Below are positions 3,708 to 42,556 of a DNA stretch of 64,000 bases, piece after piece. Origin of the DNA: an uncultured Phycisphaerales bacterium (GTDB lineage: Bacteria; Planctomycetota; Phycisphaerae; Phycisphaerales; UBA1924); contig CBDVAM010000002.1 in NCBI GenBank assembly GCA_965371965.1, positions 1,617 to 65,616 of the forward strand. Direction: 5' to 3'. The position numbers and the translations under genes were made by a program. Position 1 is the first letter of the stretch. Each line of letters begins with the position of its first letter. Under the pieces are notes generated by a model that made no database searches, was not told the DNA's origin, and saw nothing but the letters and a program-made list of their open reading frames with translations.

Positions 3708-4964
3708 TCAGCAGCCGATCACGAAAAGATCCAGGTACGCAAAGAAGTCGTTGGAATCGATGGTTCCGTTGCCATCAATGTCCGCCCTCGGATCATCGGC
3801 GGCAAAGAGATCCAGAAAGTCGAAGAAGTCGTCGGCATCGGCATCGCCGTCGCCGTCGATGTCGGCACCACAGTTCTTGGGCGGCGCGATCGCGTTGAAC
3901 AGCACGCTAGTCGTATTGCTGTCGCCATTCGGCACGGCCAGGTCGGCCATGGTGTCGCCGTTGAGGTCCGCGACGGCTATCTGCTGGGGAGCTGTGCCCG
4001 TGACGAACTGGACCGGCGCACCCAGCGTGCCGCCGAGGTTCTCCAGGCCGCTGACAAAGCTCAGATCCTCGTCGCCGACGACGACGTCGAGGTCGCCATC
4101 ACCGTCGAGGTCGACCGCGGCGATGTCGCCCGGGTTCTGCCCGCCGGTCGTGAAGAATGCCGGGCCGGTGAAGGTGCCCGCACCGGTGTTACTGAAGAGG
4201 TTGAGGAAATCGCCGGAGGCGAGTACGTCAACGTCGCCGTCGCCGTCCATGTCGCCGGTCTCGATCGAGCTCGGGCGCTGATTCGGTGTCGAGATGGACT
4301 GGGACATGCTGAACACGCCGGCGTTATTGGTGAAGAACGCCACGTCGCGGAGCTGGCGACGCCCTACGGCGAAGTCCAGATCGCCATCGCCGTCAAAGTC
4401 GCCGAAGTCTGCCCCGCCGGCCTCGTCACCGACCGAGACGTTGGTGGCGGTGAACACGCCGGCGTTGTTGACCAAGACCGAGACGCTGGCGCCGCTGCGA
4501 TTGGCGGTGAGCAGATCCATATCGCCATCGCCATCAACATCGCCCATTTTCATGGCGCGCGGCTCGCTACCGGTCGCGGCATCGCCCGCCGCACCGAACA
4601 CGCCGGCGGTGTTGGTATATACCCGCACGGTGTTCATGTTCTTGAGAACGACGGCGAAGTCTGTGTCGCCGTCGCCATCGAAGTCATGGGCCTGGAGCGT
4701 GTCGGCGCCGCTGTTCGCGCCGGTGAAGATCTCTGCGGTCTGGGTGAATACACCGGCGTTGTTGGTGAAGATGAGGACGCGGTCCGGTTGGGATACCGAG
4801 ACAGCGAGATCCATGTCACCGTCGCCATCCCAATCGCCCGCGGCGACACCGCCTGGGCGCTGCGCGGTCGCGAGGTTGGTTGCCGGGTCGAACGCCGGCA
4901 CTTCTGCGACCACCGAGGCCGCCAAGCCTGCCACGAGGATCGCACTGATTGTCTTTCTGGTCAT
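3708..4964 (-). CDS. secreted 7x FG-GAP (integrin-alpha-like propeller) protein with C-terminal Gly-Cys-terminated double-dockerin module (member A)
   Basis: ATG at 4964 (MTRKTISAILVAGLAASVVAEV signal peptide, AGGAG upstream). Seven repeats of type GDWDGDGDMDLAV / HDFDGDGDTDFAV. C-terminus NCGADIDGDGDADADDFFDFLDLFAADDPRADIDGNGTIDSNDFFAYLDLFVIGC*. Confidence 0.85.
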   Translation of the reverse strand: MTRKTISAILVAGLAASVVAEVPAFDPATNLATAQRPGGVAAGDWDGDGDMDLAVSVSQPDRVLIFTNNAGVFTQTAEIFTGANSGADTLQAHDFDGDGDTDFAVVLKNMNTVRVYTNTAGVFGAAGDAATGSEPRAMKMGDVDGDGDMDLLTANRSGASVSVLVNNAGVFTATNVSVGDEAGGADFGDFDGDGDLDFAVGRRQLRDVAFFTNNAGVFSMSQSISTPNQRPSSIETGDMDGDGDVDVLASGDFLNLFSNTGAGTFTGPAFFTTGGQNPGDIAAVDLDGDGDLDVVVGDEDLSFVSGLENLGGTLGAPVQFVTGTAPQQIAVADLNGDTMADLAVPNGDSNTTSVLFNAIAPPKNCGADIDGDGDADADDFFDFLDLFAADDPRADIDGNGTIDSNDFFAYLDLFVIGC

Positions 4965-5031
4965 GACTTCATCTCCTGTGTTTGAAGAGCTCGTTGATAC
5001 GCCGCACAGCGCGGCACCGATGAGTTGCATG

Positions 5032-5046
5032 GCAACTCGCGTGCCA
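5032..5046 (-). promoter_or_regulatory. sigma54 (RpoN) -24/-12 promoter, perfect core TGGCAC-N5-TTGC
   Basis: The minus strand reads TTTGGCACGCGAGTTGCC (reverse complement of 5031-5048). It is intergenic, ~68 nt upstream of the ATG at 4964 of member A. Confidence 0.7.
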
Positions 5047-5141
5047 AAGTCGCGTCACAGGGTGCGCCGGCGTCGCTCGCTGTCACGCAGCGCCGGGTGT
5101 CAAGTGACGATCGCCCCTGGCTTGCACTGGCCATGGCGATT

Positions 5142-5239: not shown

Positions 5240-6592
5240 TCAGCATCCGGTGACGAAGAGGTCGAGATACGCAAAGAAGTCGTCGGCGTCGATGTCGCCA
5301 TCGCCGTCGATATCTGCGGCGGGGTCGTCGGCGGCGAACAGATCGAGATAGGTGAAGAAGTCGTCGGCGTCGGCATCGCCGTCACCGTCGAGATCGGCAG
5401 CGCAGCCCAGAGCCGGATCGTCGTACCCGACGAGGTGGATGTCTCCACGCCCGGCGCCGAACGACCACGCCGTCCCGCCGACGACGATCTTGTCGGTGCC
5501 GACGGCCACGGACCATGCCCGGTCGTCGGATACACCCCCGTCAGTCTCGCTCCAGAGCTCGACGCCGTTGGCGTCTGTGCGGACGATGTACATGTCCGCG
5601 CCGCCCGCGCCGAACGAGCCGGTCATGCCTACGAAGATGAACCCGCCGTCGGGCATTACACGCACGCATTGGCCCTTGTCGTCGGCGCGCCCGTCTCCGA
5701 AGATCCGCGTCCAGATGGGCTCTCCCAGGTCATCGGTGCGAACGAGGGCCATATCGGAATCGCCCGACTGGTTCGCGAAACTCCCGGCGAGGACAAAGCC
5801 CCCGTCGGCGAGTTCGCGGATCGAACTCAGGGTGCTGGAGCCCCCGCCGTTGTTGTGCGTCTGGTCCCAGATCGCAACGCCGAGCTCATCTGTGCGGATC
5901 ACCCACCAATCCCAGATTGGGCCTTGCACGAACCCGCCGATGATGTACCCGCCGGTGGAGACCTCTTCAATCGCGAGCGCAACGTCCGAGCCTGCGTTGG
6001 GGCCATCGTCGTACTCGTAGGTTTGCGCCCATTGCTGGATGCCGTTTGCGTCGGTCTTGACCACATACATGTCGTAGCTGCCGAAGTCGCCGTCGAGGAA
6101 CCACGTCTGCCCGGCGATGATGAAGCCGCCGTCGGATGTGAGAGCCAGGGCGTGCGCTCTGCTGTCTCTGCCCGCGTCGTAGGTCCTCTCCCACAGCAGG
6201 CCGCCGTTGGCGTCTGTCCGGATGAGGAAGGCTCTGAATGAGCCGTTTCTCCCGGTCCTTCCGGCGATCGCGTACCCGCCACCGGGCAGCTCTTTGACAT
6301 CGGCCCCGTAGTTATGGAAGTCCGATAGGTTATCGAATGTCCGCGACCACTCCTGGTCGCCGTTGGCGTCGGTCTTCACGAGGTACACGGCTATGCCCGA
6401 GTTGGGTGAGAACGATCTGCTGAACCCGACGGCGATGTACCCGCCATCGCGCGTCGCCTCGATCGCGAATGCCCCGTCCTCGCTTTCGCCGCCATAATCG
6501 CGTGTGAAGAGAACGTCTTGGGCGCGTGCCCCCGGGGTGCCGCCCGCGACCAGCACCGCGGCGAAGACCATGAGTTTTCTCTGAGCGTGCAT
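5240..6592 (-). CDS. secreted beta-propeller repeat protein with Gly-Cys double-dockerin module (member B)
   Basis: ATG at 6592 with AAGGAG 7 nt upstream. Signal peptide MHAQRKLMVFAAVLVAGGTPGARAQ. Six to seven ~50-aa repeats (TDANGxxxW...DGGYIxxG). C-terminus GCAADLDGDGDADADDFFTYLDLFAADDPAADIDGDGDIDADDFFAYLDLFVTGC*. Confidence 0.85.
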   Translation of the reverse strand: MHAQRKLMVFAAVLVAGGTPGARAQDVLFTRDYGGESEDGAFAIEATRDGGYIAVGFSRSFSPNSGIAVYLVKTDANGDQEWSRTFDNLSDFHNYGADVKELPGGGYAIAGRTGRNGSFRAFLIRTDANGGLLWERTYDAGRDSRAHALALTSDGGFIIAGQTWFLDGDFGSYDMYVVKTDANGIQQWAQTYEYDDGPNAGSDVALAIEEVSTGGYIIGGFVQGPIWDWWVIRTDELGVAIWDQTHNNGGGSSTLSSIRELADGGFVLAGSFANQSGDSDMALVRTDDLGEPIWTRIFGDGRADDKGQCVRVMPDGGFIFVGMTGSFGAGGADMYIVRTDANGVELWSETDGGVSDDRAWSVAVGTDKIVVGGTAWSFGAGRGDIHLVGYDDPALGCAADLDGDGDADADDFFTYLDLFAADDPAADIDGDGDIDADDFFAYLDLFVTGC

Positions 6593-6641
6593 GATGATGC
6601 TCCTTGAGACTGTCGGGTGTGGACCCGGTGCCGGTCGCTTC

Positions 6642-8774
6642 TTAGCAGCCGGCCGCGAAGAGATCGAGATACGCAAAGAAATCGTCGGCATCGATGTCGC
6701 CATCGCCATCGATGTCGGCGGCGGAGTCGCCAGCGGCGAAGAGATCAAGGTAGGCGAAGAAGTCTTCTGCGTCGGCGTCGCCATCGCCATCAAGGTCGGC
6801 CGCACAACCGATGCTCGGCATCAGGACCGTTGCCACGCCCTCGCTGATCTGGCTGAGCCAGAGACGGCCGTTCGCGTCGAACTCGACGTCGCCGAGCTGA
6901 TGGTGGGTCATGGGCGAGTCCTGCCTCGTGAAGATCGTCCACGACTCGTGGTCGTTGATGTCTCCGGAGACAAAGCAGAGCCCGTGGGGGAAGGGGGCCT
7001 GGTTCTCGAAGGTGTGCGCGCTGAGGGCCATGAGTCCGTCATCACGGAAGTCGATGCCGCTGATCGAGATGCCGGGCAGTGGCGAGTTGGTTGTGTCGTA
7101 GAGGGTGAACTGCTTGCCGTCGAATCGGACGAGGCCGTCCACCATGCCGAGCCAGAGGGTGTCGTCGGGACCGATCTTCATCGATCTGATGCCTCCGCGT
7201 TCGAAGATGATATTGAACTCAGTGGCGTCCCAGTCAGTCCAGGTTGTGCCATCGAATCGATGGAAGCTCAGTCGCGATGCGACCCACATGTTTCCTTGGC
7301 TATCAGACTCGATGCCGATGACGATCCCATGGGGAGGCAGGTCGCCAAGCGAGTGGTGCTCCCAGTCATTGCCGGCTTGGCCCCAGAGGCCGCTGTAGTC
7401 TCCGCCGATCCACATGCGCCCGTTGGGATCCTCGCCGATGGCCTGGAAGATCTCGACTCCCAGGCTGCTGTTGCGCCAGTCCCAGATCTGGAAGTCGTTG
7501 CCATCCCATGCGCCGACGCCGTTGGAGCCCATCCAGGGGATCCCATCGCTATCCTCAAAGATGCCGTGTGCCTGCTCGGCGAGGAAGGGCCAAGGATTCT
7601 GTTGCCCGTTGTGCATCCCCCAGTTTTGCCAGCTCTGGTGATCAAACCTGCTCATGCCGGCCTCGCCGGTGGCAACCCACATGTTGCCGGTGGGGCCGCT
7701 ATAGAAGTTGTCGATGAAATAGTCCGGGATGCCGGTGTTATATGAGTTGAATGCCTCGAGCCAGGCGCCGGAGGCGTTGAGATGGCGCGAGGCACCCGGG
7801 GTCGTGACCCAGATGTCGCCGTTGTCGGCGAAGGCGAGCGAGGTGATCCGGATGCCCTGATTGGTGAACTCTTGCCAGGTGCTCCCTCCGTCACGCGAGC
7901 GAGCCACCTGGCCGAACCAGTTGGCAAGATAGACCGCGCCGTCGGGCCCGACCTCAACGGCGGTCGTGGTCGTATTCGCGAGCCCGGTGACGTCGCCGAA
8001 ATAGGCCTCATACTGCCCTGTCGAGCGATCGAAACGGTAAAACCCGTTGCCGCCGCCAACGTCTGCTCTCATCCATATGTCGCCATTGTGATCTTCGTGG
8101 AGGTCGGTAAATCGCGATGGGCCGTCGTGGAAGATCCAGTCGGTGCCGTCAAACTCCGCCAAGCCGGCGAGCACCTTATTGCCGACGAAGACGTGCCCGT
8201 CGCCGGCAACGACGATTGAACTGAGCGCGTCCCAGATCTCGTCCCAGGGCATTTCAATACCCGTCTCGTACTTGGTCCAGTTCACACCGTCGAACTCGAA
8301 GATCGCGTGATTGGTCCGCTGTACGCCGGTGTTGTTGATCCAGACGTGCCCGTCGGCGTCCAGGTCGATGTCCTTGATCCTGTTGTGGCGCAGCGGCGAG
8401 TTGCTCGTGTTGTACACCGTCCACTTGTCGCCATCCTTGTGGACCAGTCCGCCCTCGGTTGCGATCCAGATCGAGCCGTCTTGTGCGAACTCGATGTCGT
8501 CTATGAACTCGCTGGGAATCGGCGTCTCCCAGTTGGCCCATGTTTCCCACGTTTGTGTGGTGAAGTCATAGATCCCGAGGCCGCCTTCGCGCCAGAAGGG
8601 CCAGCGTGCCGCAACCCAGAGGCGCCCATCTGGCCCGAAGGTGTTGAAGCGAGCTTCCTCGCCGGGTACGCCGGTGTTGCTGGGCTTGAGGATCTTCCAG
8701 TCCTGGGCCATCGCTCCGCAGGCCAGCGCCCCAAGGGACGCCGCTACCAATGTCATACTCCACTTCCGTTTCAT
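6642..8774 (-). CDS. secreted two-component-regulator-propeller (Reg_prop-like) repeat protein with Gly-Cys double-dockerin module (member C)
   Basis: ATG at 8774. Signal peptide MKRKWSMTLVAASLGALACGAMAQ. Repeats of type DGxxWIATxxGLxxxDGxxWTxY typical of Reg_prop propellers. C-terminus GCAADLDGDGDADAEDFFAYLDLFAAGDSAADIDGDGDIDADDFFAYLDLFAAGC*. Confidence 0.85.
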   Translation of the reverse strand: MKRKWSMTLVAASLGALACGAMAQDWKILKPSNTGVPGEEARFNTFGPDGRLWVAARWPFWREGGLGIYDFTTQTWETWANWETPIPSEFIDDIEFAQDGSIWIATEGGLVHKDGDKWTVYNTSNSPLRHNRIKDIDLDADGHVWINNTGVQRTNHAIFEFDGVNWTKYETGIEMPWDEIWDALSSIVVAGDGHVFVGNKVLAGLAEFDGTDWIFHDGPSRFTDLHEDHNGDIWMRADVGGGNGFYRFDRSTGQYEAYFGDVTGLANTTTTAVEVGPDGAVYLANWFGQVARSRDGGSTWQEFTNQGIRITSLAFADNGDIWVTTPGASRHLNASGAWLEAFNSYNTGIPDYFIDNFYSGPTGNMWVATGEAGMSRFDHQSWQNWGMHNGQQNPWPFLAEQAHGIFEDSDGIPWMGSNGVGAWDGNDFQIWDWRNSSLGVEIFQAIGEDPNGRMWIGGDYSGLWGQAGNDWEHHSLGDLPPHGIVIGIESDSQGNMWVASRLSFHRFDGTTWTDWDATEFNIIFERGGIRSMKIGPDDTLWLGMVDGLVRFDGKQFTLYDTTNSPLPGISISGIDFRDDGLMALSAHTFENQAPFPHGLCFVSGDINDHESWTIFTRQDSPMTHHQLGDVEFDANGRLWLSQISEGVATVLMPSIGCAADLDGDGDADAEDFFAYLDLFAAGDSAADIDGDGDIDADDFFAYLDLFAAGC

Positions 8775-8829
8775 CAGATGTACCTCGTTCGTTTCTCTCT
8801 GTGGCGAGCGGCTCTGCCGACGCCAAGAA

Positions 8830-8841
8830 CCAATAGTGTGG
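8830..8841. promoter_or_regulatory. CCAATAGTGTGG motif (copy 2)
   Basis: Exact 12-mer shared with 5144-5155. Intergenic, ~56 nt upstream of the ATG at 8774. Confidence 0.25.
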
Positions 8842-8903
8842 GCGGACGAGTCACCTCGCCTCTCACGCCCGGGACCGGCTGCCACGGCCCCTCCCCTAGA
8901 AAA

Positions 8904-10994
8904 TCAGCAGCCCGCTGCAAACAGATCTAAATACCCAAAGAAATCGTCGGCGTCGATGTCGCCATCGCCATCGATGTCGGCGGCGGGATCGCGGGTGGCG
9001 AAGAGATCGAGATACGCGAAGAAGTCGTCGGCATCGATGTCGCCGTCGCCATCGAGGTCGGCGGGACACGGGGTCGCGGTGGAGATGATGCGGCCGCCCC
9101 ACCCGGCTGCCCAGAGGTCGCCCGAGGGCGAGGCGTCGAGCTGAGCCGGGTTGTAGGGGAACAGGGAGTCGCGGCTGCGGATCCAGGTCTGCCCGCCGTT
9201 GACGGTGTGGAGCGTGATCGGTTGGATCTGGCGATCGACCCCGACGACCCAGACCTCATTGGCGCTGATGACCGCGACACCCATGGCGACGCGGACCTCG
9301 TGGTTGTTGCCGAAGTCGAAGGTCTGCCATGTCCGCCCGCCGTCGAGTGTGCGTGCGGCGTAGTCCCACCATCCGACGGCCCAGCCGACGTTCTCGTCGA
9401 TGAACTGCATGTCCTGGATGGTGGGGTTGTCGCCGAAGTAGACGTCGGGCAGCGTGACGTCCTGCCATGTGTTGCCTCCGTCATCGGTGCGGTGCAGGAT
9501 GCCGCCGAGGCGCATGATCCAGCCCTTGTCCTCACCGATGAACTGGATGAGCTCGAAGGCTGCGCCGTCGAACGGGCGGAACCAGGTTTGCCCGCCGTTG
9601 AGCGTGCGGTAGATGGATTCTTGCGTTCTGAACATGTCTCGATTGGAACCGACGACCCAGATGTCGTCGGGGGTTCGTGCGGCGATATCCCTGATGTCGA
9701 GATCGACGGGCAGGCGTCCACCACTGCTGATGGGCATCCAGTTCTGCCCCGCGTCCACAGACTTGAACACCGTGCCGCCGGGACCGGCGATAAAGGCGTT
9801 CTGATCGTCGAGAATGTCAACAGCGTTGAGTGATTCGTCGAAGCCGAACTCCTGGCCCCGGATCTCCGGCTTCTGGACGGTCCAGTGGGTGCCCCCGTCG
9901 GTGGTCCGCATCACATAGGTATTGCGGGCGACGGCGATTCCATACCTGTCGGTGTGCATCTCGATGGCGGTGATATCCATGCCGATGCCGTTGGTGATGT
10001 ACTGCCAAGTCTGCCCCCCGTCGCTGGTGCGATAGATGATGCCGCGAGCGCCCGTGAGGATCCCGACCCCTGCGTCTGTGAAGTTGAGTTCCCAGGTGTA
10101 CGGCAGATCGCCGATGGCGTCGAGCGTCTTGGTCCAGGTGGTGCCGAGGTCGTGGGAGAGCCAGACATCGCCCTGGTGGGAGGCCCCGGCGATCGTAAAC
10201 TCGTCGACGAGCGCGAGATCGTTGAGTGGGCCGTCCTCCTCGAACTCCTGCGAGACCGCGGCCCAGGATTGCCCGCCATCGGTCGAGCGATAGACCTGCC
10301 CGGGCAGGACTCCCGTCGCCACCGCCGTGTTCTGATCGACGTACATGACGTCGTTGATGACCGCATCGAGGACGTGTGTCCAGGTTCGCCCACCATCGGT
10401 AGTCCTAAAAATCCCGTCCAGATCGTCGGGGATCTGATGGCCCGACACGAGACCGATCTCGGCGTCGATGAAGTCTGAGCCCCAGGCAATCGGGCAGTCG
10501 GGCCATCCCAAGCGCAGTTCCCAGGTCTGCCCGCCGTCGGTCGTGCCCGCGCAGGCGCCGTTGGCCATGAAGATGCCGTGGGTCGGGCTCTCGAAGTCGA
10601 TGAACCTCCACGAGCCCGCCATGCCAGGCATGGGCGTCCAGGTCTGGCCGCCATCGGTGGTGCGCAGGGCGTCGGAGTTGTTGCCGGTGACCCAGCCGTG
10701 GTTCTCGTCAATGAAGAAGACGTCGTAGTAGGGATTGGTGCTGTGAGCCTCGAGGTTGCGCTCGATCCAGGTCCGCCCGCCGTCGAATGTCTCGAAGAGC
10801 GCTCGGTTGCGGCCGACCATGAAGCCGTGCAGCGGTGTGGCGAACGCCACGCTGTTGAGGTCACGGTCTGTGGGAAGCACGCTCTGCCTGGTCCATTGTG
10901 GCTGTGCGTTTGCGAGGGAGGCAGCGCCAGCGATCGCAAGCAGCCAGGAGAACGCGAGAGTGTTCAGGGTTCGGCTTGTCCGTTGGGTCTTCAC
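8904..10994 (-). CDS. secreted BNR/Asp-box (sortilin/Ycf48-like) propeller protein with Gly-Cys double-dockerin module (member D)
   Basis: Many SxDxGxTW boxes (TDGGQTW, DGGRTW, TDGGTHW...). The GTG at 10994 has a strong SD (AGAGGAGGAG) and gives a clean signal peptide (KTQRTSRTLNTLAFSWLLAIAGAASLANA/Q). An alternative ATG lies at 11024. C-terminus PCPADLDGDGDIDADDFFAYLDLFATRDPAADIDGDGDIDADDFFGYLDLFAAGC*. Confidence 0.85.
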   Translation of the reverse strand: MKTQRTSRTLNTLAFSWLLAIAGAASLANAQPQWTRQSVLPTDRDLNSVAFATPLHGFMVGRNRALFETFDGGRTWIERNLEAHSTNPYYDVFFIDENHGWVTGNNSDALRTTDGGQTWTPMPGMAGSWRFIDFESPTHGIFMANGACAGTTDGGQTWELRLGWPDCPIAWGSDFIDAEIGLVSGHQIPDDLDGIFRTTDGGRTWTHVLDAVINDVMYVDQNTAVATGVLPGQVYRSTDGGQSWAAVSQEFEEDGPLNDLALVDEFTIAGASHQGDVWLSHDLGTTWTKTLDAIGDLPYTWELNFTDAGVGILTGARGIIYRTSDGGQTWQYITNGIGMDITAIEMHTDRYGIAVARNTYVMRTTDGGTHWTVQKPEIRGQEFGFDESLNAVDILDDQNAFIAGPGGTVFKSVDAGQNWMPISSGGRLPVDLDIRDIAARTPDDIWVVGSNRDMFRTQESIYRTLNGGQTWFRPFDGAAFELIQFIGEDKGWIMRLGGILHRTDDGGNTWQDVTLPDVYFGDNPTIQDMQFIDENVGWAVGWWDYAARTLDGGRTWQTFDFGNNHEVRVAMGVAVISANEVWVVGVDRQIQPITLHTVNGGQTWIRSRDSLFPYNPAQLDASPSGDLWAAGWGGRIISTATPCPADLDGDGDIDADDFFAYLDLFATRDPAADIDGDGDIDADDFFGYLDLFAAGC

Positions 10995-11228: not shown

Positions 11229-11357
11229 TTAACCTCTATCTGCAAAGAGGTCGAGGTATGCGAAGAAATCGTCGGCGTCGGTGTCGCCATCGGCAAGGGC
11301 CATTGGATCTGCGCCGACGATGACTGCTGCCAGAGCCCAACTCTTCTTACAGATCAT
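11229..11357 (-). CDS. 42-aa mini-ORF: signal-peptide-like N-terminus plus one dockerin repeat
   Basis: Hand-translated because it is below the ORF-track cutoff: MICKKSWALAAVIVGADPMALADGDTDADDFFAYLDLFADRG*. GGAGA lies 3-4 nt upstream of the ATG. It sits ~50 nt downstream of the sigma54 element at 11419-11433. It could be a functional peptide or a decayed family member. Confidence 0.4.
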   Translation of the reverse strand: MICKKSWALAAVIVGADPMALADGDTDADDFFAYLDLFADRG

Positions 11358-11418: not shown

Positions 11419-11433
11419 GCAATGCGTGTGCCA
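11419..11433 (-). promoter_or_regulatory. sigma54 (RpoN) -24/-12 promoter, perfect core TGGCAC-N5-TTGC
   Basis: The minus strand reads TTTGGCACACGCATTGCA (reverse complement of 11418-11435). It is intergenic, upstream of the mini-ORF and of members D-C-B. Confidence 0.7.
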
Positions 11434-11629: not shown

Positions 11630-13189
11630 CTACGGGCATCCCATCACGAACATGTCGAGGTAGTAGAAGAAGTCGTTGGAGTCGATAATGAGATCGGGCA
11701 GGCCGTACTCCGAGGAGTCCGGGTCGGAAGACCCCGTCATGTCGGCCTCGGCCAGGCTGTCGCTCGAGAACTGGTCGAGGTAATAAAAGAAATCGTCGCC
11801 ATCGACGTCGCCGTCGGGAACGCCATAGCTTCCATCGCCAGAGTTCGATGACCCGGTGAGATCGCCCCGGCAGAAGAGACCCCGGTCTTCGAACTCAATC
11901 ACGGAGTTGCCATCAAGATCAAACAGGCTGAAGTTTGGTCCGCATCCGGGCACGACCACCCGCCCGTCCACCCGCCCGTCGGCGTCGCACGAGGTCCCGT
12001 CGAGCGCGGCGAGCGCGTCCTCATACTCTCTCACGTCCTGGCCATTGACTCGCTCGTCGGCGTTGAGATCACACGGTCGCACGTCAAAGCCGACATCGGT
12101 CCAGACATACAGCCCGTCTTCCTGCTTCGCATACGACGTGCCAAACAGCGCGGTGACGTCCCATTCGCTCGGCTCCAGTGCATCCTCGGCCTTCTTGTGT
12201 TCCCATCGCTCGGTGAGCACCTCGACCTCGCCATTGAGGCCCCCGGCATGGTCGATCAGATCCTGGACCGCCTCGATGACGCTGTGATGGCTGAACGGGC
12301 CGATCTCGTAGTCGATTGGCTCCTCGGGCTCGCCGGTGAGCTGCGCGGCACCAGCCATCGTCAGCGCCTCGACCAGCGTGATGGTCGTCGTATCGGTCGC
12401 GATGTCGTGGCTGAATCGAATGTTTACTTTCGGATCATACAGTCCGAAGTCGGTGCCGCCGAAGACCTCGCTGGCGTCCTGATATCCCGCGGCCCGCTGA
12501 AAGTACCGGCTGCGAACGACCCAGGTCTCGCCGGCCTCGAAGGTGTCGTCCTGGTCGCCGCCGGCCTTGGATTCGATCGTCACCCTATGGCAGCCGCAGA
12601 GCACCAGCGAGAAGTCCTCGCCCGATCGCTCGAAGAAGGGCTCGGTCCAGAAATCAAGATCGTGGTCCCCACATCCGCCCGGCCCGGCGCCGCTGCGCGC
12701 TGCACGCTCGCCGATGTCATCGCCGGGAAGCCCGCCGAATCGCCCGACATTCGCCAGGAATCGGAGTTCGGCGGCTCCCCCGAGCTCTCCGCCGGTGTCC
12801 TCGTCATGATCGACGTCGAACTCGAGGAACCCGAGCACGGGGCTCGGTCCAAAGATGAATGCCTCAAACGGACCGCCCCCGATGCCGACTCTGCCCGAAG
12901 GATTCACAAGGCCAACGAAGGAAACGTCCAACCGAAAGAGTTCAGCGTCGTCGTCGTCCTCCACCTCGCCGGTGTACGGATCGATAAGAGCGTCGTCCGC
13001 TCGCCAGCCGCTGAGGGTCACCCGCAGCACGTCCGGCAGATTGCTCAATGGATTCAGCGCCGCGACGCACCCGGTATCGGTCCGCCGGACTGTTGCGTCG
13101 CCGAACCCATCGACGAACCTCGCGACGTCGTCGCTCGCCGTTGCGCCGAGGCACGCCACCGCCGGAACACACCACGCCCATCGCCTCAT
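11630..13189 (-). CDS. secreted protein of unknown N-terminal fold with divergent Gly-Cys-Pro double-dockerin module (member E)
   Basis: The ATG at 13189 overlaps the TGA of the upstream response-regulator gene (ATGA). Signal peptide [19 protein letters not shown]-terminus ...FCRGDLTGSSNSGDGSYGVPDGDVDGDDFFYYLDQFSSDSLAEADMTGSSDPDSSEYGLPDLIIDSNDFFYYLDMFVMGCP*. Confidence 0.8.
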   Translation of the reverse strand: MRRWAWCVPAVACLGATASDDVARFVDGFGDATVRRTDTGCVAALNPLSNLPDVLRVTLSGWRADDALIDPYTGEVEDDDDAELFRLDVSFVGLVNPSGRVGIGGGPFEAFIFGPSPVLGFLEFDVDHDEDTGGELGGAAELRFLANVGRFGGLPGDDIGERAARSGAGPGGCGDHDLDFWTEPFFERSGEDFSLVLCGCHRVTIESKAGGDQDDTFEAGETWVVRSRYFQRAAGYQDASEVFGGTDFGLYDPKVNIRFSHDIATDTTTITLVEALTMAGAAQLTGEPEEPIDYEIGPFSHHSVIEAVQDLIDHAGGLNGEVEVLTERWEHKKAEDALEPSEWDVTALFGTSYAKQEDGLYVWTDVGFDVRPCDLNADERVNGQDVREYEDALAALDGTSCDADGRVDGRVVVPGCGPNFSLFDLDGNSVIEFEDRGLFCRGDLTGSSNSGDGSYGVPDGDVDGDDFFYYLDQFSSDSLAEADMTGSSDPDSSEYGLPDLIIDSNDFFYYLDMFVMGCP

Positions 13190-14670
13190 GACGTTCTCTC
13201 CGCGATCTCTCGAACCTTGTCCTCGAGCCCGTACCGCTCGATGCGATACCGGAAGCTGCTCCGCTGCATGCCGATGAGCTTGGAGGCCTTGGAGACGTTG
13301 CCGCGGGTGTGCTCGAGCGCCTGGAGCATGAGGGCCTGCTCGACCTGGTCCACCTTGTGCATGCCTCGCTCGAAGTCGAATCTCGGCGTGCCGCCGATGG
13401 GCGTCGCCTTGCCGTTGCTGTGCTCTATGCCCGCCCGCGGATGGGCGATCCCGATATCCGCGGCCTCGACCATCTTGGTCTCGCTCAGCATCGCGGCCCG
13501 CTGGATCGCGTTGGCCAGCTCTCTGACGTTGCCCGCCCAGCGGTGCGAGAGGATCGCCGACTCGCACGCCGGCGACAAATCCAGTCCATCGCGCCCGTAG
13601 CGAGCGCCCATGTCTTCCAGGAGTTCGCGTGCAATCAGCAAGGCATCCTGCTCCCGCTCGCGTAAGGGCGGGATCTCGATCGGGAATGCTGCGAGGCGGA
13701 AGAACAGGTCTCGCCGAAACTTGCCGTCCTCGGCGAGCGACTCAAGCTCCTGGTTTGACGCTGCGATGACCCGCGCCCGCACCTTGCGCTCGCGCGATCC
13801 GCCGACGCGCCGGAACGTGCCCTGCTCGACAACGACGAGCAGCTTGGCCTGGAGCTCCAGCGGCATCTCGCTGATCTCGTCAAGAAAGATTGTGCCGCCA
13901 TCGGCCATCTCGAACAGCCCGGTGCGCGAGGTCCGTGCGTCGGTGAAGGCGCCCTTCTCGTGCCCGAACAGCTCGCCCTCGACGAGGCTTGCCGGCAGCG
14001 CCGAGCAGTTGACGTGGACGAACGGCGGCTCGTCCTTGGTCGATGATGGCTGGCGTTCGACCGCCATGTCGTGGATGTATCGAGCGAGCACACCCTTGCC
14101 AACGCCGGTCTCGCCGAGCAGCAGGATTGTGGGCAGGGCCCCGCCGGGATCGGCGCCCAAGGGCATCTGCGCGAGGCGTGCGGACAGATCGAGGCACTTG
14201 AGCCAGGCCGCGCTCTGTCCCAGGACCTTCCGCCCCTGCTCGCGCGTCCGTTCCAGACGCTCGTACAGCTCGACCTTCTGGCTCAGTCGGCGATGCTCCA
14301 GCCACCTGGGAAGCTGGATCAGCAGCTCCTCGATGACGATGGGCTTCTGGAGATAGTCGTTGGCCCCATCGCGCATCGCCTCGACGGCGTGCTCGACGCT
14401 GCCGTAGGCCGTCATCACGATGATGACCCCGTCGAAGCCGTCGGCACGCAGCTCGCGCACGAACTCCAGCCCGTCTTCTTCGCCCAGATGTACGTCGGTG
14501 AGAACGAGGTCCAGGCTCTCCCGTTGCGACACGCCCCGCGCCGATCCGATCGACTCGCCCTCAAACACCTCGTGCCCGGCCTTTGTCAGCGATCGAGAAA
14601 CAGAGAATCTCAGGTTCTCTTCGTCCTCAATAATGAGAATCCTGGCCACCGTCTGCTCCTGACTGGCCAT
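13186..14670 (-). CDS. sigma54-dependent response regulator (NtrC family: REC + AAA+ EBP + Fis-type HTH)
   Basis: REC domain ([11 protein letters not shown]...DLVLTDVHL). Walker [18 protein letters not shown]-loop variant [28 protein letters not shown]-terminal [29 protein letters not shown]. Start taken at ATG 14670, overlapping the HK gene end by 44 nt; the start is uncertain. Confidence 0.9.
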
Positions 14671-27944: not shown

Positions 27945-27948
27945 CCTA

Positions 27949-29587: not shown

Positions 29588-29750
29588 TCTCGCTCCCCGA
29601 GGCTTCGTTGATCAAACCAAGGAACACTTCGGCCCGTCGGGACGTTTAGCTGTCTGAAAAACCGAACGCCCCCATCAGAATAGATTGTTCGCGGGCAAGC
29701 GGCGGATTGCACCTCGACGGATAGAATCTCGAACTTACGGAGTAATACGC

Positions 29751-30884
29751 ATGTTTCAGCAACTCGGTCGATGCCTCGTGTACGGCACGGTCTGCGTCGC
29801 CGCGGCCGCTCATGGCCAGACACTCAAACTCGGTGACACAGCTCCGTCGATTGCAGTCGACGAGTGGATCAAGGGCGGGGATATCACGTCACTGGAACGG
29901 GGAAAGGTCTATGTCATCGAGTTCTGGGCAACCTGGTGCGCCCCGTGCATCACGAGTATCCCGCACCTGTCGGAGTTGCAGAAGAAGTACGCCGACCAGG
30001 ATGTCCACATCATCGGCACGACCAAGTTCGATCCGAACAATACCAAGCAGGGCGTCATTTCCTTTGTCGAAGACCAAGGGGACAAGATGGCCTACAACGT
30101 CGCCTGGGATGGCGACGGATCGATCTATCGGAGCTACATGGAGAACGCCCAGCAGGCCGGCATCCCGACCGCGTTCGTCGTTGACCGCGATGGCAAACTC
30201 GCGTGGCTCGGCCATCCGATGGCGATGGACCGCCCGCTGGCGATGATCGCCGGCGGGAAATGGGACATTGAGAAATACCAGAAGGGCTCGGCGATCCACG
30301 ATCGCGCCCAGCAGAGCTTCCAGAACGGCGACTTCGACGCCACCATAGACGCGGCCGACGAGCTCCTTGCAGACTACCCCAAGCTGTTCGGCGGCGACGC
30401 GCAGTATCTCAAGGTCATGATCGACCGGTACAAGGGCGAGGGCGAGCGTGTGATCGACGGGCTCGACGTGCTCATCAACGACTACCCGGATTATCTGGGC
30501 GACAACGGGCCGTTCTTCAAGTTCTCCTCGATGATCGAGTACGGCATGAGCGAGCGGGCGATGAAGCTCGGGCGCGAGCTGGTCGATGGGCGGTTCAAGG
30601 ACGATCCGGATCGGTTGGCGCAGATGGCCTGGGCCATCGCGACGACCGAGGTCGATGGGCTGGATCTGAACCTTGCGTTGCGGGCGGGCACGCGTGCCAA
30701 CGAGCTGCGCAAGGGCGAGCACGCCGACACGCTGGACACCCTCGCACGCGTTCACTTCCAGCGGGGCGATGTGGACAAGGCGATCGAGTTGCAGGCCCGG
30801 GCGGTTGAGTTGGAGACCGATCCGCAGCGCCTGCCGCACTTCAAGCGCACGCTGGGCGAGTACCGGTCGGCCAAGGACGACTGA
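29751..30884 (+). CDS. TlpA/redoxin-family thioredoxin-like protein with C-terminal TPR-like helical domain
   Basis: Signal peptide. VYVIEFWATWCAPCITSIPHL contains a WCxxC active site. GGAG lies 8 nt upstream of the ATG at 29751. Confidence 0.8.
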   Translation: MFQQLGRCLVYGTVCVAAAAHGQTLKLGDTAPSIAVDEWIKGGDITSLERGKVYVIEFWATWCAPCITSIPHLSELQKKYADQDVHIIGTTKFDPNNTKQGVISFVEDQGDKMAYNVAWDGDGSIYRSYMENAQQAGIPTAFVVDRDGKLAWLGHPMAMDRPLAMIAGGKWDIEKYQKGSAIHDRAQQSFQNGDFDATIDAADELLADYPKLFGGDAQYLKVMIDRYKGEGERVIDGLDVLINDYPDYLGDNGPFFKFSSMIEYGMSERAMKLGRELVDGRFKDDPDRLAQMAWAIATTEVDGLDLNLALRAGTRANELRKGEHADTLDTLARVHFQRGDVDKAIELQARAVELETDPQRLPHFKRTLGEYRSAKDD

Positions 30885-30971: not shown

Positions 30972-31982
30972 TCAGCCCCCGGCGTCGTTGCTCGGAGCGT
31001 CGCTAACGGCGTCGCCTTCGCCCTTGCTGAGAGGACCGGGTCCGGTGCCGAAGGGCGGCGCATCGACGAGGCGTGCCTGCTTGATCGCCGGCGGATCGAA
31101 CGGACGATCGCCCTTGGCCTTGTCGACCGGGACCGACTGGATCGCGCGGATGGCCTCGGCCCCGCGCACGGCCTCGGCGAACGCCGTGTAGTTGCCGTCG
31201 AGGAAGCTGGTGCCCTGCCTGCTGAGGCAGACAAACACCTGTGAGCCGTTGCTGTTTGGGTCGCCGCTGCGGGCCATGGAGAGCACGCCGAAGTCGTGCT
31301 CCAAGGCTGTCTGTTCGAGGTCGATGAAGTAGCCCGGCCCGCCGGAGCCCGTGCCCGTGGGATCCCCGACCTGGATGACGAAGGGAGCTCCGTTGGCCTT
31401 GGCCACGACGCGATGGAAGATGACATCGGTGTAGAAGCCGCCGCCGGCCAGGTCCATGAAGTTCCGCACGGTGTTGGGCGCGTGGTCCGGTCTCATGCGA
31501 AACTCGATCTCGCCCTTTGTGGTTTCCAGGACGACGTGCTGATCGACCCACGCACGCGTGCCCGAGTAGGTGTTGCCCGTGGCGCGAGGGACGGGACCGC
31601 GGATGCCCGGCTCCATGACAAAGTTGACCGGCGAGACCATCGGCTGGAGCACCACGGGCGCTCCCAAACCCTCGCCATCAACCGTGAGCTGGGCGTAGTG
31701 GACATGGCGGTGTTCCCTGCCTGATATCTGCGGAAACAACGCCCCGAGATCGACCCGTCCAGAGGCGACGTCGACGCTGGCCAGCGCTTCACCGTCGGGG
31801 TGGAACAGCGTGATGCTCACGCCCTCGGCGTCAGCAGGAACCTCGACCGAGAATGGGATCGGGCGATCCACGCCGTAGTAGGTTCGCTCGGGAGTGAGCT
31901 GCGCATCGGCGACGCCGACGACGAGGACACAGGCTGCGAGGGCTCCGAGGCGATGCCCCACGGTGTATTGGTGGATTCTCAT
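30972..31982 (-). CDS. secreted cyclophilin-type peptidyl-prolyl cis-trans isomerase with N-terminal extra domain
   Basis: FHRVV...FVIQVGDPTGTGSGGPGY...GVLSMARSGDPNSNGSQVFV cyclophilin core. N-terminal signal peptide. Confidence 0.9.
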   Translation of the reverse strand: MRIHQYTVGHRLGALAACVLVVGVADAQLTPERTYYGVDRPIPFSVEVPADAEGVSITLFHPDGEALASVDVASGRVDLGALFPQISGREHRHVHYAQLTVDGEGLGAPVVLQPMVSPVNFVMEPGIRGPVPRATGNTYSGTRAWVDQHVVLETTKGEIEFRMRPDHAPNTVRNFMDLAGGGFYTDVIFHRVVAKANGAPFVIQVGDPTGTGSGGPGYFIDLEQTALEHDFGVLSMARSGDPNSNGSQVFVCLSRQGTSFLDGNYTAFAEAVRGAEAIRAIQSVPVDKAKGDRPFDPPAIKQARLVDAPPFGTGPGPLSKGEGDAVSDAPSNDAGG

Positions 31983-32118
31983 GGGGCCACTGTATCATCG
32001 AAATCGGCGGTTGGGTCTACGCCGGGGGCTGGAGCGTAACGAGTCGACTCCCTGATTCAGCGCAGAGCACACCCACCGCGCCCCCGAGATGGTCCCGAGT
32101 CCCGGCGTGTGTCAGGAA

Positions 32119-39742: not shown

Positions 39743-39759
39743 CCGATGGGAGTGCAGCG

Positions 39760-41034
39760 ATGATCCGGCGATGCGGAAACAGATGCAGGGGCACGCTGCG
39801 CATCAGGTTGCTTGTGCTGGCGGTGGGCGTTCTCGCGATCGCGGGATCGCCCGCCCCGGCGCAGGACGATGAGCCCCACTTCATCAGGCTCGGGCATTTC
39901 CCCGACGGGCTCTCTGCCAGTGGCGCGAACGATATCTCGCCGGAGGGCTCGGTCGTCGTCGGCTCCGCCCCGCATGCCGGCTTTGGCGACTTCGAGGCCT
40001 TCCGGTGGACCGAGCAAACGGGATTGGTCGGCCTGGGCAGGCTGGTTGCATGGGGCATCTCAAAGGCGCGGGCGACATCGTCGGACGGCGAGGTCGTCGT
40101 CGGGTGGTCGCACTCCGCGCAGGGTCCCGAGGCATTCCGCTGGACCGAGCAGACGGGCATGGTCGGGCTCGGGGACCTGCCCGGCGGGAAGTTCAACTCC
40201 ATGGCGTTCGGCGTCTCGTGGGACGGACGGGTCATCGTCGGGCACGGACGTTCGCCAGACCTCGAGGCCTACAGGTGGACGCCCGAGGAAGGCATGGTTG
40301 GACTTGGGGACCTGCCCGGCGGGAGCGTTTGGAGCGCGGCGATCGCCGTTTCTGCCGACGGCTCGGTCATCGCCGGGCACAGCAGTTCCGCCAACGGCCG
40401 CGAAGCGTTCCGCTGGACGCCCGAGGAAGGCATGGTTGCCCTGGACCAATCCGATGACTGGTCAAGTACGGCCGTATACGGCATTTCAGCGGATGGTCGA
40501 ACCGTGGTCGGGTTTGGGTTTTTTCGCGGCGAACGTTCAGAGGCGTTCCGCTGGACGCGGGCAACGGGCTTTGAGGGGCTCGGCGACCTGCCCGGCGGGC
40601 GGTTCCAGAGCACCGCAAGGGCCACCAACGCCAACGGCTCGATCGTCGTCGGCGAGAGCATCACCGAGACCGGCAACCAGCCGTTCATTTGGACCAAACG
40701 CCACGGCCTGCGCAACCTACGCGACCTGATCGTCGACGGACTCGGTCTGGATGTCGAAGACATGGAACTCAAGTACGCCAGCGCCGTCTCCGCCGACGGG
40801 CGATGGATCACCGGCGGCGCCTGGACCGACGACGGCTCGGAGGGATGGGTGGTGTATCTGGGCCCGGGCTGCCCCGCCGACTTCGACGGAGACGCCGACA
40901 CCGACGCGGAGGACTTCTTCCTCTACCTCGATCTCTTCGCCGCGGGCGACATGCGCGCCGACATCGACGACGACGGCGACATCGACCAGGACGACTTCTT
41001 CGGGTACCTGGATCTGTTCAGCGCGGGCTGTTAG
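39760..41034 (+). CDS. secreted HAF-family extracellular repeat protein with Gly-Cys double-dockerin module (member F)
   Basis: Six to seven ~45-aa repeats (EAFRWTxxxGMVGLGDLPGGxxxSxAxxVSADGSVIxG), matching the HAF repeat pattern as I recall it. C-terminus GCPADFDGDADTDAEDFFLYLDLFAAGDMRADIDDDGDIDQDDFFGYLDLFSAGC*. Confidence 0.8.
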   Translation: MIRRCGNRCRGTLRIRLLVLAVGVLAIAGSPAPAQDDEPHFIRLGHFPDGLSASGANDISPEGSVVVGSAPHAGFGDFEAFRWTEQTGLVGLGRLVAWGISKARATSSDGEVVVGWSHSAQGPEAFRWTEQTGMVGLGDLPGGKFNSMAFGVSWDGRVIVGHGRSPDLEAYRWTPEEGMVGLGDLPGGSVWSAAIAVSADGSVIAGHSSSANGREAFRWTPEEGMVALDQSDDWSSTAVYGISADGRTVVGFGFFRGERSEAFRWTRATGFEGLGDLPGGRFQSTARATNANGSIVVGESITETGNQPFIWTKRHGLRNLRDLIVDGLGLDVEDMELKYASAVSADGRWITGGAWTDDGSEGWVVYLGPGCPADFDGDADTDAEDFFLYLDLFAAGDMRADIDDDGDIDQDDFFGYLDLFSAGC

Positions 41035-41083
41035 CGAAGCGGTGGGCGGGCGGAGACGGCCCTGACCAAAAGGAGGCGGCGAC

Positions 41084-42556
41084 ATGTTTCAGCGTGGAAG
41101 CCAGCGAAGAACGAGGCGAAGAATCTCGCGGAGCGGGATCGGAGCGCCGTGCATGGGTCCGACGCGGAGCATCTGCGTGTCCGTTGCGGTGGCCGCCCTC
41201 GTGGCGGCGGGCGCGCAGGCACAGCAGCTCGCAAAGTTCACACCGGAGGACGGCGTGAGATGGGGAGACTTTGGCAGCAGCGTCTCGATCAGCGGGTTCA
41301 CGGTGGTCGTTGGGTCTCGGAACGGGCGTGCAGCGGGGCTTGCCAGCGGTTTCGCGTCCGTGTACCGAGCATTGGGCGGAGACTGGCGGCAGATCGCCCT
41401 GATCACCGCTGACGACGCCGCACGCGGCGATGAGTTCGGCTTCAGCGTCTCGATCAGCGGGGACACCATGATCGCCGGGTCGATTCATGACAACGAGCAA
41501 GGAGACGGGAACCGCCACACAGGCCGTGGAGCGGCGTACATCTTCCGCGAGATCGATGGGCTGTGGCGGCAGGTCGCCAAGCTCAGCGCCGATGACGGCG
41601 AGGCCCGCGACAGTTTCGGCACCAGCGTCTCGATCAGTGGTGATACGGCCGTCGTTGGAGCCCCTTTCGACAGCGATGCGGGCAGGTTGAGCGGCTCAGC
41701 GTACGTCTTTCGGGAGGAGGATGGGCTGTGGCGGCAGGTCGCCAAACTCACCGCCGACGACGCCGAGGCCGGCGATTGGTTCGGTACCAGCGTCTCGATC
41801 AGCGGGGACACGGTGGTCGTCGGGGCTCACAGAGACAACGGCGCGGGCGGGAACAGCGGCTCGGCGTATGTCTTCCGCGAGGTAGATGGACTGTGGGGGC
41901 AGATCGCCAAACTCACCGCCGACGACGCCGAGGCATCGGACCATTTCGGCATCAGCGTCTCGATCGGCGGTGATACGGCGGTGGTCGGGATTCGCAGAGA
42001 TCAGCAGGGGGATCCCGACAGCGGATCGGCGTATGTCTTCCGCGAGGTTGACGGGGTGTGGCGACAAATCGACCAGCTTCGGCCCGACGATGGGATGCCT
42101 CACGACCACTTTGGCACCAGCGTGTCGATCGATAGAAACGCCATTGTCGTCGGTGCCTCGGGAAGCGATGGCGCGGGCCTGAACAGCGGCTCGGCGTATT
42201 TGTTCCGCGAGTTCGATGGCGTGTGGGAGCAGGTTGAGAGAGTCTTCCCGCAGGACGGCCAGTCCTCCGATTTGTTCGGCGAGAGTATCGCGATCAGCGG
42301 TGATGTGGCTGCGATCGGAGCTAGTGGTGACGACGATGAGGGTCCGCTCACGGGTTCGGCATACGTCTTCTGGGTCGGGTCGAGCTGCCCGGCCGATTTG
42401 GATGGAGACGCCGACGCCGATGCCGACGACTTTTTCGCCTACCTCGACGCCTTCGTCGCCGGCAACCTCGACGTCTGCGACATCGACAATGACGGCGACT
42501 GCGACGCCGAGGACTTCTTGGGCTTTCTGAACCTGTTTGCTTCGGGGTGTCCGTGA
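41084..42556 (+). CDS. secreted FG-GAP repeat protein (8 blades) with Gly-Cys-Pro double-dockerin module (member G)
   Basis: AAAGGAGG lies 7 nt upstream of the ATG at 41084. Repeats DxFGxSVSISGDTxVVGA...GSAYVFRExDGxWxQ. C-terminus SCPADLDGDADADADDFFAYLDAFVAGNLDVCDIDNDGDCDAEDFLGFLNLFASGCP*. Confidence 0.85.
   Translation: MFQRGSQRRTRRRISRSGIGAPCMGPTRSICVSVAVAALVAAGAQAQQLAKFTPEDGVRWGDFGSSVSISGFTVVVGSRNGRAAGLASGFASVYRALGGDWRQIALITADDAARGDEFGFSVSISGDTMIAGSIHDNEQGDGNRHTGRGAAYIFREIDGLWRQVAKLSADDGEARDSFGTSVSISGDTAVVGAPFDSDAGRLSGSAYVFREEDGLWRQVAKLTADDAEAGDWFGTSVSISGDTVVVGAHRDNGAGGNSGSAYVFREVDGLWGQIAKLTADDAEASDHFGISVSIGGDTAVVGIRRDQQGDPDSGSAYVFREVDGVWRQIDQLRPDDGMPHDHFGTSVSIDRNAIVVGASGSDGAGLNSGSAYLFREFDGVWEQVERVFPQDGQSSDLFGESIAISGDVAAIGASGDDDEGPLTGSAYVFWVGSSCPADLDGDADADADDFFAYLDAFVAGNLDVCDIDNDGDCDAEDFLGFLNLFASGCP

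Follow-up and report, generated by a model that had tools for sequence, protein, structure and literature searches.

GC-type dockerin modules with a conserved cysteine pair at the C-terminus of seven predicted secreted proteins from an uncultured Phycisphaerales bacterium

Cellulosomal type I and type II dockerins (PF00404), such as those in 2Y3N, 2VN5, 2CCL, 2OZN and 6KG9, consist of two duplicated segments, each a Ca2+-binding loop followed by a helix, and are found at the C-terminus of secreted proteins that are mainly carbohydrate-active enzymes (CAZymes). Their N- and C-termini meet in an "intramolecular clasp" that stabilizes the Ca2+-bound form, which is reported in 2Y3N and is located at position -2 relative to the conserved G0 in the type-II dockerin of C. 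thermocellum (Slutzki et al. 2013, PMC3821032). Closer to the organism considered here, the "planctosome" hypothesis for freshwater Phycisphaerae posits non-cellulosomal cohesin-dockerin assemblies with M12B reprolysin-like peptidases, a hypothetical model for proteins of Nemodlikiaceae in which Pfam detects cohesin and dockerin (Andrei et al. 2019, PMC6461901). A further group, the GC-type dockerins, is catalogued as NCBIfam NF041540 ("dockerin_GC," GC-type dockerin domain-anchored protein). Neither the name nor the accession is mentioned in the literature that we searched, so the function of this family is described at the level of annotation only. Here, we analyze a stretch of 64,000 nucleotides (hereafter the window) from an uncultured Phycisphaerales bacterium (GenBank assembly GCA_965371965.1, contig CBDVAM010000002.1, positions 1,617 to 65,616), in which seven genes, A to G, encode proteins ending with a GC-type dockerin module. 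We consider it probable that these modules are tails closed by a disulfide clasp, which dock a variety of secreted passengers at the cell surface.

There are exactly seven full modules in the window, each at the C-terminus of a long open reading frame (ORF), as determined by a six-frame scan for the helix motif, by translation and by a hidden Markov model (HMM) derived from the modules, with which all stop-to-stop segments were scanned (Table 1). All seven share the same layout, i.e., Cys-x-Ala, two consecutive units composed of a Ca2+-type loop and a DFFxYLDLF helix, and a terminal Gly-Cys, followed in some by Pro, directly before the stop codon. In each unit, the loop consists of 12 Asp-rich residues with the pattern D1-x-D3-x-D5-G-D7-x-D9-x-x-D12. 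By sequence, this is the arrangement of dockerin segments, in which two tandem segments of ~22 residues each have a 12-residue loop with ligands in positions 1, 3, 5, 9 and 12, followed by a helix. The consensus that an earlier, sequence-only reading of this DNA had drawn by eye is the same in a MAFFT alignment of the seven modules, in which 20 columns are invariant, including both Cys, the terminal Gly-Cys and the DFF/L/D/F residues of both helices. The compact form, seen in A-D, F and G, is 54 residues long from Cys to Cys, while each loop of E is longer by 12 residues, which agrees with the expanded loops previously attributed to this protein. The protein ends on the terminal Cys in A-D and F, while one residue follows it in E and G, and the extra Cys pair of G is present in the alignment, both as described before. 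The first Cys, which had been placed one or two residues ahead of the loop, is actually three residues before the first loop Asp (C-x-A-D).

Upstream of this shared module, the seven proteins differ. They all start with a Sec-type signal peptide, as read from sequence, while their passengers, which are unrelated to one another, comprise FG-GAP_3 repeats in A (1.2e-41), a domain resembling an SBBP/delta-60-type propeller in B, a Reg_prop propeller in C, a BNR/Ycf48/sortilin-type propeller in D, HAF repeats in F (HAF_rpt, 1.1e-36) and FG-GAP_2 repeats in G. In all, five kinds of β-propeller are represented. For the 420-residue passenger of E, no relative was found in Pfam or by sequence search of the PDB. 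Two of the proteins are already present in databases, protein B being 100% identical to P0033 and protein F to P0037.

Profile scores indicate that the module is a GC-type dockerin. All seven proteins reach NF041540, scoring 41.5-73.1 bits where the curated cutoff is 29, and all seven stop at Gly-Cys or Gly-Cys-Pro, which is the C-terminal ending that goes with this family. The NF041540 model has 67 positions, to which E aligns end to end, while the 54-residue compact form skips 13 of them. In score, C-terminal place and Gly-Cys end, the proteins of the window are thus like the catalogued family, from which nothing essential sets them apart. The sequence-only reading recognized neither the dockerin nature of the module nor the existing family. 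As ordinary members of a family already catalogued, the seven genes do not represent a new kind of element.

The predicted structure is consistent with this identification. When the compact module was modeled with AlphaFold2 using the seven-sequence alignment, a predicted local distance difference test (pLDDT) score of 93.1 was obtained, with helices at residues 16-28 and 43-54. A Foldseek search of the PDB with this model returned 2y3n_B as the best match, with a template modeling (TM) score of 0.66, a root-mean-square deviation (rmsd) of 2.1 Å over 54 columns and a probability of 0.97. Further dockerin matches, namely 6kg9, 2vn5_B, 2ozn_B and 2ccl_B, have TM scores of 0.59-0.63, and dockerins are the sole low-rmsd matches in the PDB (TM 0.59-0.66, rmsd 2.1-3.0 Å). 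A structure prediction, which had been suggested as a check on the two Cys, therefore gives a confident two-helix, dockerin-like fold for the compact module, whereas the expanded module of E is modeled with a pLDDT of only 55. No solved structure of a GC-type dockerin appears to exist; a PDB sequence search using the module profile returned marginal EF-hand loops (E 1e-3 or worse) and no dockerin. Beyond the duplicated segments and the place at the end of secreted proteins, the module has in common with cellulosomal dockerins its predicted fold and, with those displaying a dual binding mode, near-identical internal repeats. It differs from them by an inter-repeat linker of ~6 residues, which is much shorter, by a DFFxYLDLF helix signature instead of the usual Leu-rich helix, by passengers that are propellers and proteases rather than mainly CAZymes, and by its Gram-negative planctomycete host.

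Other classes of elements were considered and rejected. EF-hand pairs of the calmodulin type resemble the module by their Asp-rich 12-residue loop with ligands in positions 1, 3, 5, 7, 9 and 12 followed by a helix, and there are weak matches to EF-hand_6 and EF-hand_1. However, EF-hand_6 is about at threshold for C and D only (25.0 and 24.9 bits versus a cutoff of 25), the module has no entering helix, and calmodulin-type pairs do not superpose on its model (TM ~0.3, rmsd ~10 Å). The module thus does not correspond to a canonical EF-hand pair. The N-terminal signal peptides and the absence of GGxGxD nonapeptides rule out a repeats-in-toxin (RTX) signal for type I secretion, and a C-terminal domain for type IX secretion is ruled out since the module is helical and not a β-sandwich.

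GC-type modules are abundant. A word-indexed protein search with the short module gave merely 30 matches, mostly fragments, and an exhaustive profile search of 1.84 billion cluster representatives was used instead, which retrieved 5634 proteins at E <= 1e-3, 565 of which reach E <= 1e-10. For the best 150 of these 5634 representatives, the match ends, with few exceptions, on the last or penultimate residue. At least 71 loci were found in a scan of one genome per species, almost all of them in metagenome-assembled genomes (MAGs) of Phycisphaerales or Phycisphaeraceae; among the loci listed outside these groups, there is one Pirellulales and one unclassified Planctomycetota genome. Several modules often occur in one 20-kb locus, up to ten. 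Complete Phycisphaerales genomes, such as CP053450 and OZ245777, are among the carriers of the family. The passenger domains present among 98 representatives include FG-GAP variants, DUF7453, DUF3466, LVIVD, M12B reprolysin-type peptidases, subtilases (S8), β-helices, Kelch and one GH18. The reprolysin domains, which are found in 4 of the 98, are a feature in common with the planctosome model. The GC-type module is consequently a promiscuous tag of secreted proteins, not a CAZyme system.

Protein E gives the best view of how the module relates to classical dockerins. When the full-length protein was used as a query, it defined a widespread orthologous family of ~500-residue proteins (P0172-P0291), some of which, in Phycisphaerales MAGs, carry the NCBI name "GC-type dockerin domain-anchored protein." In 33 of the 120 orthologues listed, a Pfam PF00404 dockerin occupies the same C-terminal position, and this links the GC type with classical dockerins through common descent. 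The C-terminal dockerins in this family are of several types: GC with expanded loops, compact with a putative Cys clasp, with the partner Cys moved to position 6 of loop 1, and Cys-free of the Pfam type. This provides evidence that GC-type and Pfam-type dockerins replace one another within a single orthologous family. Across the modules, the DFFxYLDxF helix motif is conserved well beyond the needs of loop chemistry, and the conservation of a helix capable of being exposed on the surface suggests a conserved protein interface. Variations in the number of units were also seen. E orthologues display a third conserved EF-hand-like loop (NFSLYDLNGDG) ahead of the module, and some family members, P0031 and P0032, have three loop-helix units rather than two; in P0031, two compact units and one expanded unit lie between the first Cys and a terminal GCG.

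We then come to the Cys pair, which the sequence-only reading had interpreted as either a clamping disulfide or a terminal Cys used for covalent attachment or processing. Mature A and mature F have exactly two Cys each, both in the module, and the four Cys of mature G are all in the module; the totals in the other mature proteins are three for B and C, four for D and nine for E. Both Cys are present in 137 of the best 139 compact representatives, with the first one located three residues ahead of loop Asp1 in 132 of these 137. Since the profile used to choose these representatives includes the Cys columns, the HMM was rebuilt with the Cys masked and used to search 1.05 Mb of related Phycisphaerales loci. 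The resulting counts, like those for the E orthologues, are free of this selection bias. The masked HMM found 140 full modules, of which 130 have both Cys, six have neither, three have the N-side Cys only (in two of them at a non-canonical position) and one has the terminal Cys only (Fisher P = 6e-8, not corrected for phylogeny). Among E orthologues, 76 have both Cys, 30 neither, seven the N-side Cys only and one the terminal Cys only (P = 1e-19, kinship being ignored). The exceptions are of a particular kind, since four of the seven N-side Cys are in an upstream loop, the other three belong to a different Cys pattern, and the terminal-only case is a parsing miss. The two Cys are therefore conserved in orthologues mostly as a pair, kept or lost together, and joint losses are seen in several different genomes and lineages.

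Two further observations bear on the nature of this pair. In one group of E orthologues, the partner of the terminal Cys is found at position 6 of loop 1 (GDxNxDC...C-COOH); the partner has been relocated while the pair is retained, which is the behavior of a disulfide and not of a single reactive residue. The extra pair of G, composed of a Cys at position -1 and another at position 8 of loop 2, likewise occurs as a unit, with 46 of the 139 representatives having both, 93 neither and none a single one. In these alignments, the four-Cys type of G is a recurrent subtype. Finally, the first Cys corresponds in our alignment to position -2 relative to the G0-equivalent, with the terminal Cys as its partner. 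Because the Cys are gained and lost together, the extra pair of G co-occurs, mature A and F have no Cys other than these two, and the predicted fold is that of dockerins with a known clasp, the Cys pair most likely forms a disulfide clasp that closes the module. The termini of cellulosomal dockerins meet in such a clasp, and in the GC type it would be covalent.

The alternative put forward for the terminal Gly-Cys is that it is a sorting or processing signal, whose Cys is lipidated, engaged in a thioester or thioether linkage, or cleaved, leading to covalent attachment to the envelope, with a nearby exosortase as the candidate enzyme. The position of the module is in favor of this, since it is at the extreme C-terminus in almost every member (ending no more than four residues from the stop in 136 of 140 genomic modules) and its Gly-Cys is highly conserved; moreover, there is an exosortase-family gene in an exopolysaccharide (EPS) locus ~5 kb downstream (Table 1). 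There is also a general likeness to PEP-CTERM/exosortase signals, which are C-terminal tags on many secreted proteins of one genome, and the setting is similar, as the window has an exosortase-family gene, a sigma-54 two-component system and an EPS locus. However, the tails in the window (...DLFAAGC*) lack a PEP-like motif, a hydrophobic transmembrane segment and a basic cluster, being instead the amphipathic helix of a folded helical domain followed by Gly-Cys. Furthermore, the terminal Cys is followed by zero, one or two varied residues (P, D, G, A, S, L), some 30 E orthologues and six genomic modules keep the dockerin with neither Cys, and other lineages shift the partner Cys to position 6 of loop 1 while keeping the pair. 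Of the two possibilities originally proposed for the Cys pair, the disulfide is thus favored by covariation and by the precedent of the fold, and attachment is disfavored by Cys-free orthologues and trailing residues, which makes a sorting signal very improbable.

Several findings weigh against the notion that the modules are disulfide-clasped dockerins that dock their passengers. Pfam Dockerin_1 (PF00404) is not significant on the modules, its best matches having E values of 0.3-6 and scores of 7.5-11.7 bits against a cutoff of 22.9, and the profile has no match at all to E, F and G. The Foldseek matches have weak E-values of 0.26 or worse, owing to the very small size of the domain, and confidence in the model of the expanded module of E is low. 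The statistics of Cys covariation take no account of phylogeny. In addition, no cohesin or other candidate receptor is present among the window ORFs scanned; a phmmer search for cohesin in 1 Mb of related loci found none either, a search of low sensitivity with an approximate CipA query, which does not establish absence.

The lack of a cohesin match in these ORFs, together with the extremely Asp-rich loops, the EF-hand_6 score that equals its cutoff, the EPS biosynthesis and export locus in the window and the great variety of passengers, also counts in favor of a Ca2+-binding fold with no protein receptor at all, acting as a Ca2+-triggered folding or stability tag for export, or as a means of Ca2+-bridged binding to anionic EPS or envelope. 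Yet the fold matches dockerins and not EF-hand pairs, orthologues have PF00404 dockerins at the same position, and the invariant DFFxYLDxF helix suggests an interface with a protein. For freshwater Phycisphaerae, there is a report of cohesin/dockerin pairs, purely hypothetical in nature (PMC6461901); a cohesin is part of that model while none is seen in the window ORFs scanned, and the GC/Cys-clasp feature is not discussed there. The cohesin search itself was limited to the window and the low-sensitivity scan of the 1-Mb loci. On balance, we regard a module without a protein receptor as quite unlikely.

Docking by a disulfide-clasped module would then work as follows. The proteins would be exported by Sec, after which Ca2+ binding would fold both loops, pack the two helices in an antiparallel manner and bring the termini of the module together. 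A disulfide would form between the terminal Gly-Cys and the Cys that precedes loop 1 by three residues, as a covalent version of the non-covalent clasp of cellulosomal dockerins, and in the four-Cys subtype represented by G a second disulfide might form around loop 2. The clasped module would dock its passenger non-covalently onto a partner on the cell surface, whether a cohesin-like scaffold or another receptor, so that propellers and proteases are displayed at the surface in a planctosome-like manner. Among neighboring paralogues of one genome, modules would be homogenized by gene conversion or module exchange.

This last step bears on the earlier claim of near-identical DNA between paralogues, C and D in particular, which had been ascribed to module shuffling or gene conversion. 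Near-identity is an overstatement. In the stretch of C and D that had been cited, 55 of 61 nucleotides are identical, with an exact run of 34 nucleotides, while nucleotide identity between whole modules is 69-85%, with 137/162 for C-D. Most of this is expected from the peptide and codon bias, since resampling codons for the same peptides, using the codon usage of the genome or that of the modules, already gives 126-130/162 (78-81%). C-D is the sole pair above this null (identity P = 0.002-0.03, run length P = 0.001-0.012), with the same codon at 33 of 47 identical residues versus 23.3 expected (P = 0.003), these P values being uncorrected for 10 pairs. The other nine paralogue pairs are at codon-usage expectation for both same-codon counts and identity. 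At the level of repeat units, repeat 2 of C and repeat 1 of D are 94% identical over 67 nucleotides, an out-of-register match, and this best pair (C2-D1, 61/66) is not significant after correction for 45 comparisons. The likeness is limited to the last ~160 nucleotides of each gene. The passengers of C and D show only marginal similarity (24-28% over short stretches) and belong to the Reg_prop and BNR/Ycf48/sortilin classes, respectively. Considered within this genome, the near-complete agreement with the codon null and the failure of C2-D1 under correction are what one would see if module likeness merely reflected purifying selection on a low-complexity, Asp-rich peptide combined with codon bias, with neither conversion nor shuffling.

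Comparison with a relative argues otherwise, and because the within-genome tests of conversion are weak after multiple-test correction, the case rests on orthologue quartets. The MAG OFTM8 (contig JAJDDM010000032; loci L012 and L053) is syntenic with the window at ~77% nucleotide identity. Its gene order is HK'-RR'-E'-X1-X2-C'-X3-X4-X5-X6-A', where HK and RR stand for histidine kinase and response regulator, the middle of the cluster being different from that in the window; its orthologues of A, C and E are 79, 73.5 and 73% identical to ours in amino-acid sequence. The C module resembles those of its neighbors D and B (0.85 and 0.83) more closely than the module of its orthologue C' (0.79), while the C' module is closest to that of its own neighbor X2 (0.88). 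In the quartet formed by C, D, C' and X2, 15 sites support pairing within the same genome, one supports pairing of orthologues and three support the third pairing. At synonymous third positions, same-genome pairing prevails by 10 to 1, against 2.6 +/- 1.5 under the codon-usage null (P < 0.001). Consistently, loop-2 residues are species-specific across neighbors, I-G-I here (ADIDGDGDID) and L-N-T in OFTM8 (ADLDNDGDTD). The module of A retains more orthologue signal, with 10 orthologue-type and six same-genome sites. These quartets make selection and codon bias an unlikely full account, and support the view that the central tandem paralogues have been homogenized by gene conversion or module exchange, i.e., that they show concerted evolution. 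The earlier proposal of gene conversion thus finds its support in OFTM8, the evidence from within the genome being weak.

Table 1. Positions of the modules and of other features in the window (numbering from the first letter of the 64,000-nucleotide stretch)
Feature	Positions	Strand	Description
Module A	3711..3872	-	54 aa from Cys to terminal Cys; gene A 3708-4964; NF041540 45.5 bits
Module B	5243..5404	-	gene B 5240-6592; NF041540 50.5 bits
Module C	6645..6806	-	gene C 6642-8774; NF041540 53.7 bits; AlphaFold2 pLDDT 93.1
Module D	8907..9068	-	gene D 8904-10994; NF041540 55.7 bits
Module E	11633..11872	-	expanded loops, 80 aa, ends GCP; gene E 11630-13189; NF041540 73.1 bits
Module F	40870..41031	+	gene F 39760-41034; NF041540 46.0 bits
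Module G	42386..42553	+	four Cys, ends GCP; gene G ~41153-42556; NF041540 41.5 bits
Tiny ORF	11229..11357	-	42 aa; signal-peptide-like N-terminus and one loop-helix half-module without Cys; HMM 27 bits, profile positions 8-25
Response regulator, sigma-54-activating	13186-14805	-	Sigma54_activat 4.7e-57, Response_reg, HTH_8; adjoins E
Sensor histidine kinase	14627-16219	-	directly upstream of E, together with the response regulator
Exact sigma-54 -24/-12 consensus	5032..5046	-	TGGCACGCGAGTTGC; ~70 nt before gene A begins
Exact sigma-54 -24/-12 consensus	11419..11433	-	TGGCACACGCATTGC; precedes the tiny ORF and D, C and B
One-mismatch sigma-54 site	~14840	-	9 of 10 positions; ahead of the regulator gene
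EPS locus	45885-58878	+	about 3-5 kb downstream of G
Exosortase-family gene	47467-48642		65 bits on TIGR04178; within the EPS locus
Redoxin/AhpC-TSA protein	29658-30884	+	thioredoxin fold, fused to tetratricopeptide repeats (TPR)
Cyclophilin-type prolyl isomerase	30972-31994	-	
C- and A-rich region	1849-3700		plus strand; GC skew -0.30, AT skew +0.19
Segments conserved in OFTM8	2188-2474 and 2730-3222		81% identity to sequence lying downstream of the A orthologue
NikA-like small ORF	43601-44158	-	mobilization-protein domain; just downstream of G

The genomic surroundings suggest how the modules might be controlled. On the minus strand, genes A-E stand head to tail, and a sensor kinase and a response regulator immediately precede them (Table 1). 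The regulator is NtrC/AtoC-like, scoring below every equivalog cutoff, and its stop codon overlaps the ATG of E (ATGA). The order kinase-regulator-E is kept in two other Phycisphaerales MAGs, at positions 2-4093 of L053 and, on the minus strand, 5287-9829 of the more distant L028. The exact sigma-54 consensus TGGCAC-N5-TTGC occurs twice in the window, versus 0.06 times expected, both sites being on the minus strand and upstream of module-encoding genes, and a site with one mismatch precedes the regulator gene. In the OFTM8 cluster, there are four exact sigma-54 sites just upstream of GC-dockerin genes, one of which is ~80 nucleotides upstream of the A orthologue, at a distance equivalent to that in the window. 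Judging from these motifs, the GC-dockerin genes here appear to be sigma-54-dependent and under the control of the adjacent two-component system. The tiny ORF situated downstream of one of the two exact sites, which encodes a half-module, is probably the remnant of a deleted member of the cluster.

Genes F and G come after a gene for an FG-GAP protein without the module and are followed by the EPS locus. This locus encodes a polysaccharide export protein, a PrsT-like TPR protein of 1527 residues, a tyrosine autokinase, and sugar-modifying enzymes that include an epimerase/dehydratase and a WecA/MraY-like transferase. Its exosortase-family gene passes the exosortase/archaeosortase signature model but is below all subtype cutoffs (XrtA, XrtD, XrtW and others). 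No PEP-CTERM tails were found in the window, in which regular-expression matches were out-of-frame noise only.

Other features of the window are recorded here as side observations. Between the two clusters of dockerin genes lie a redoxin/AhpC-TSA protein with a thioredoxin fold fused to TPR, and a cyclophilin-type prolyl isomerase; either could be active in envelope protein folding or oxidation. Before module A in the numbering of the window, there is a region strongly rich in C and A on the plus strand, whose ORF has no Pfam match and is partly low in complexity, with many Pro, Ser and Thr, and two segments of which are conserved in OFTM8, where they lie downstream of the A orthologue. Close to G, a small ORF whose product has a NikA-like mobilization-protein domain hints at mobile-element-derived DNA nearby.

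Together, these elements allow a bolder picture to be drawn, which we consider speculative and rather doubtful: GC-type dockerins may form the cargo side of a planctomycetal system for surface display that has not been described so far, in which dozens of sigma-54-controlled secreted propellers and proteases per genome, each with a disulfide-clasped dockerin, would be held by a receptor other than a canonical cohesin. Such a receptor could be the conserved E-family protein linked to the kinase and regulator, an envelope protein, or an exosortase-dependent exopolysaccharide, and species-specific gene conversion would keep all cargo matched to it.

What our analysis adds to a family so far described by annotation is, first, a structural reading in which the Gly-Cys terminus would be a covalent dockerin clasp, with a recurrent second disulfide predicted in the four-Cys subtype. 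It adds evidence for the replacement of GC-type by Pfam-type dockerins, and vice versa, in one orthologous family, and for the concerted evolution of neighboring modules. Lastly, it links GC-type dockerin genes to sigma-54 promoter motifs and to the two-component system next to them. GC-type dockerins, for which there are 5634 cluster representatives, are abundant in Phycisphaerales, each genome having many copies, and the identity of the receptor would tell how these planctomycetes organize their cell surface.

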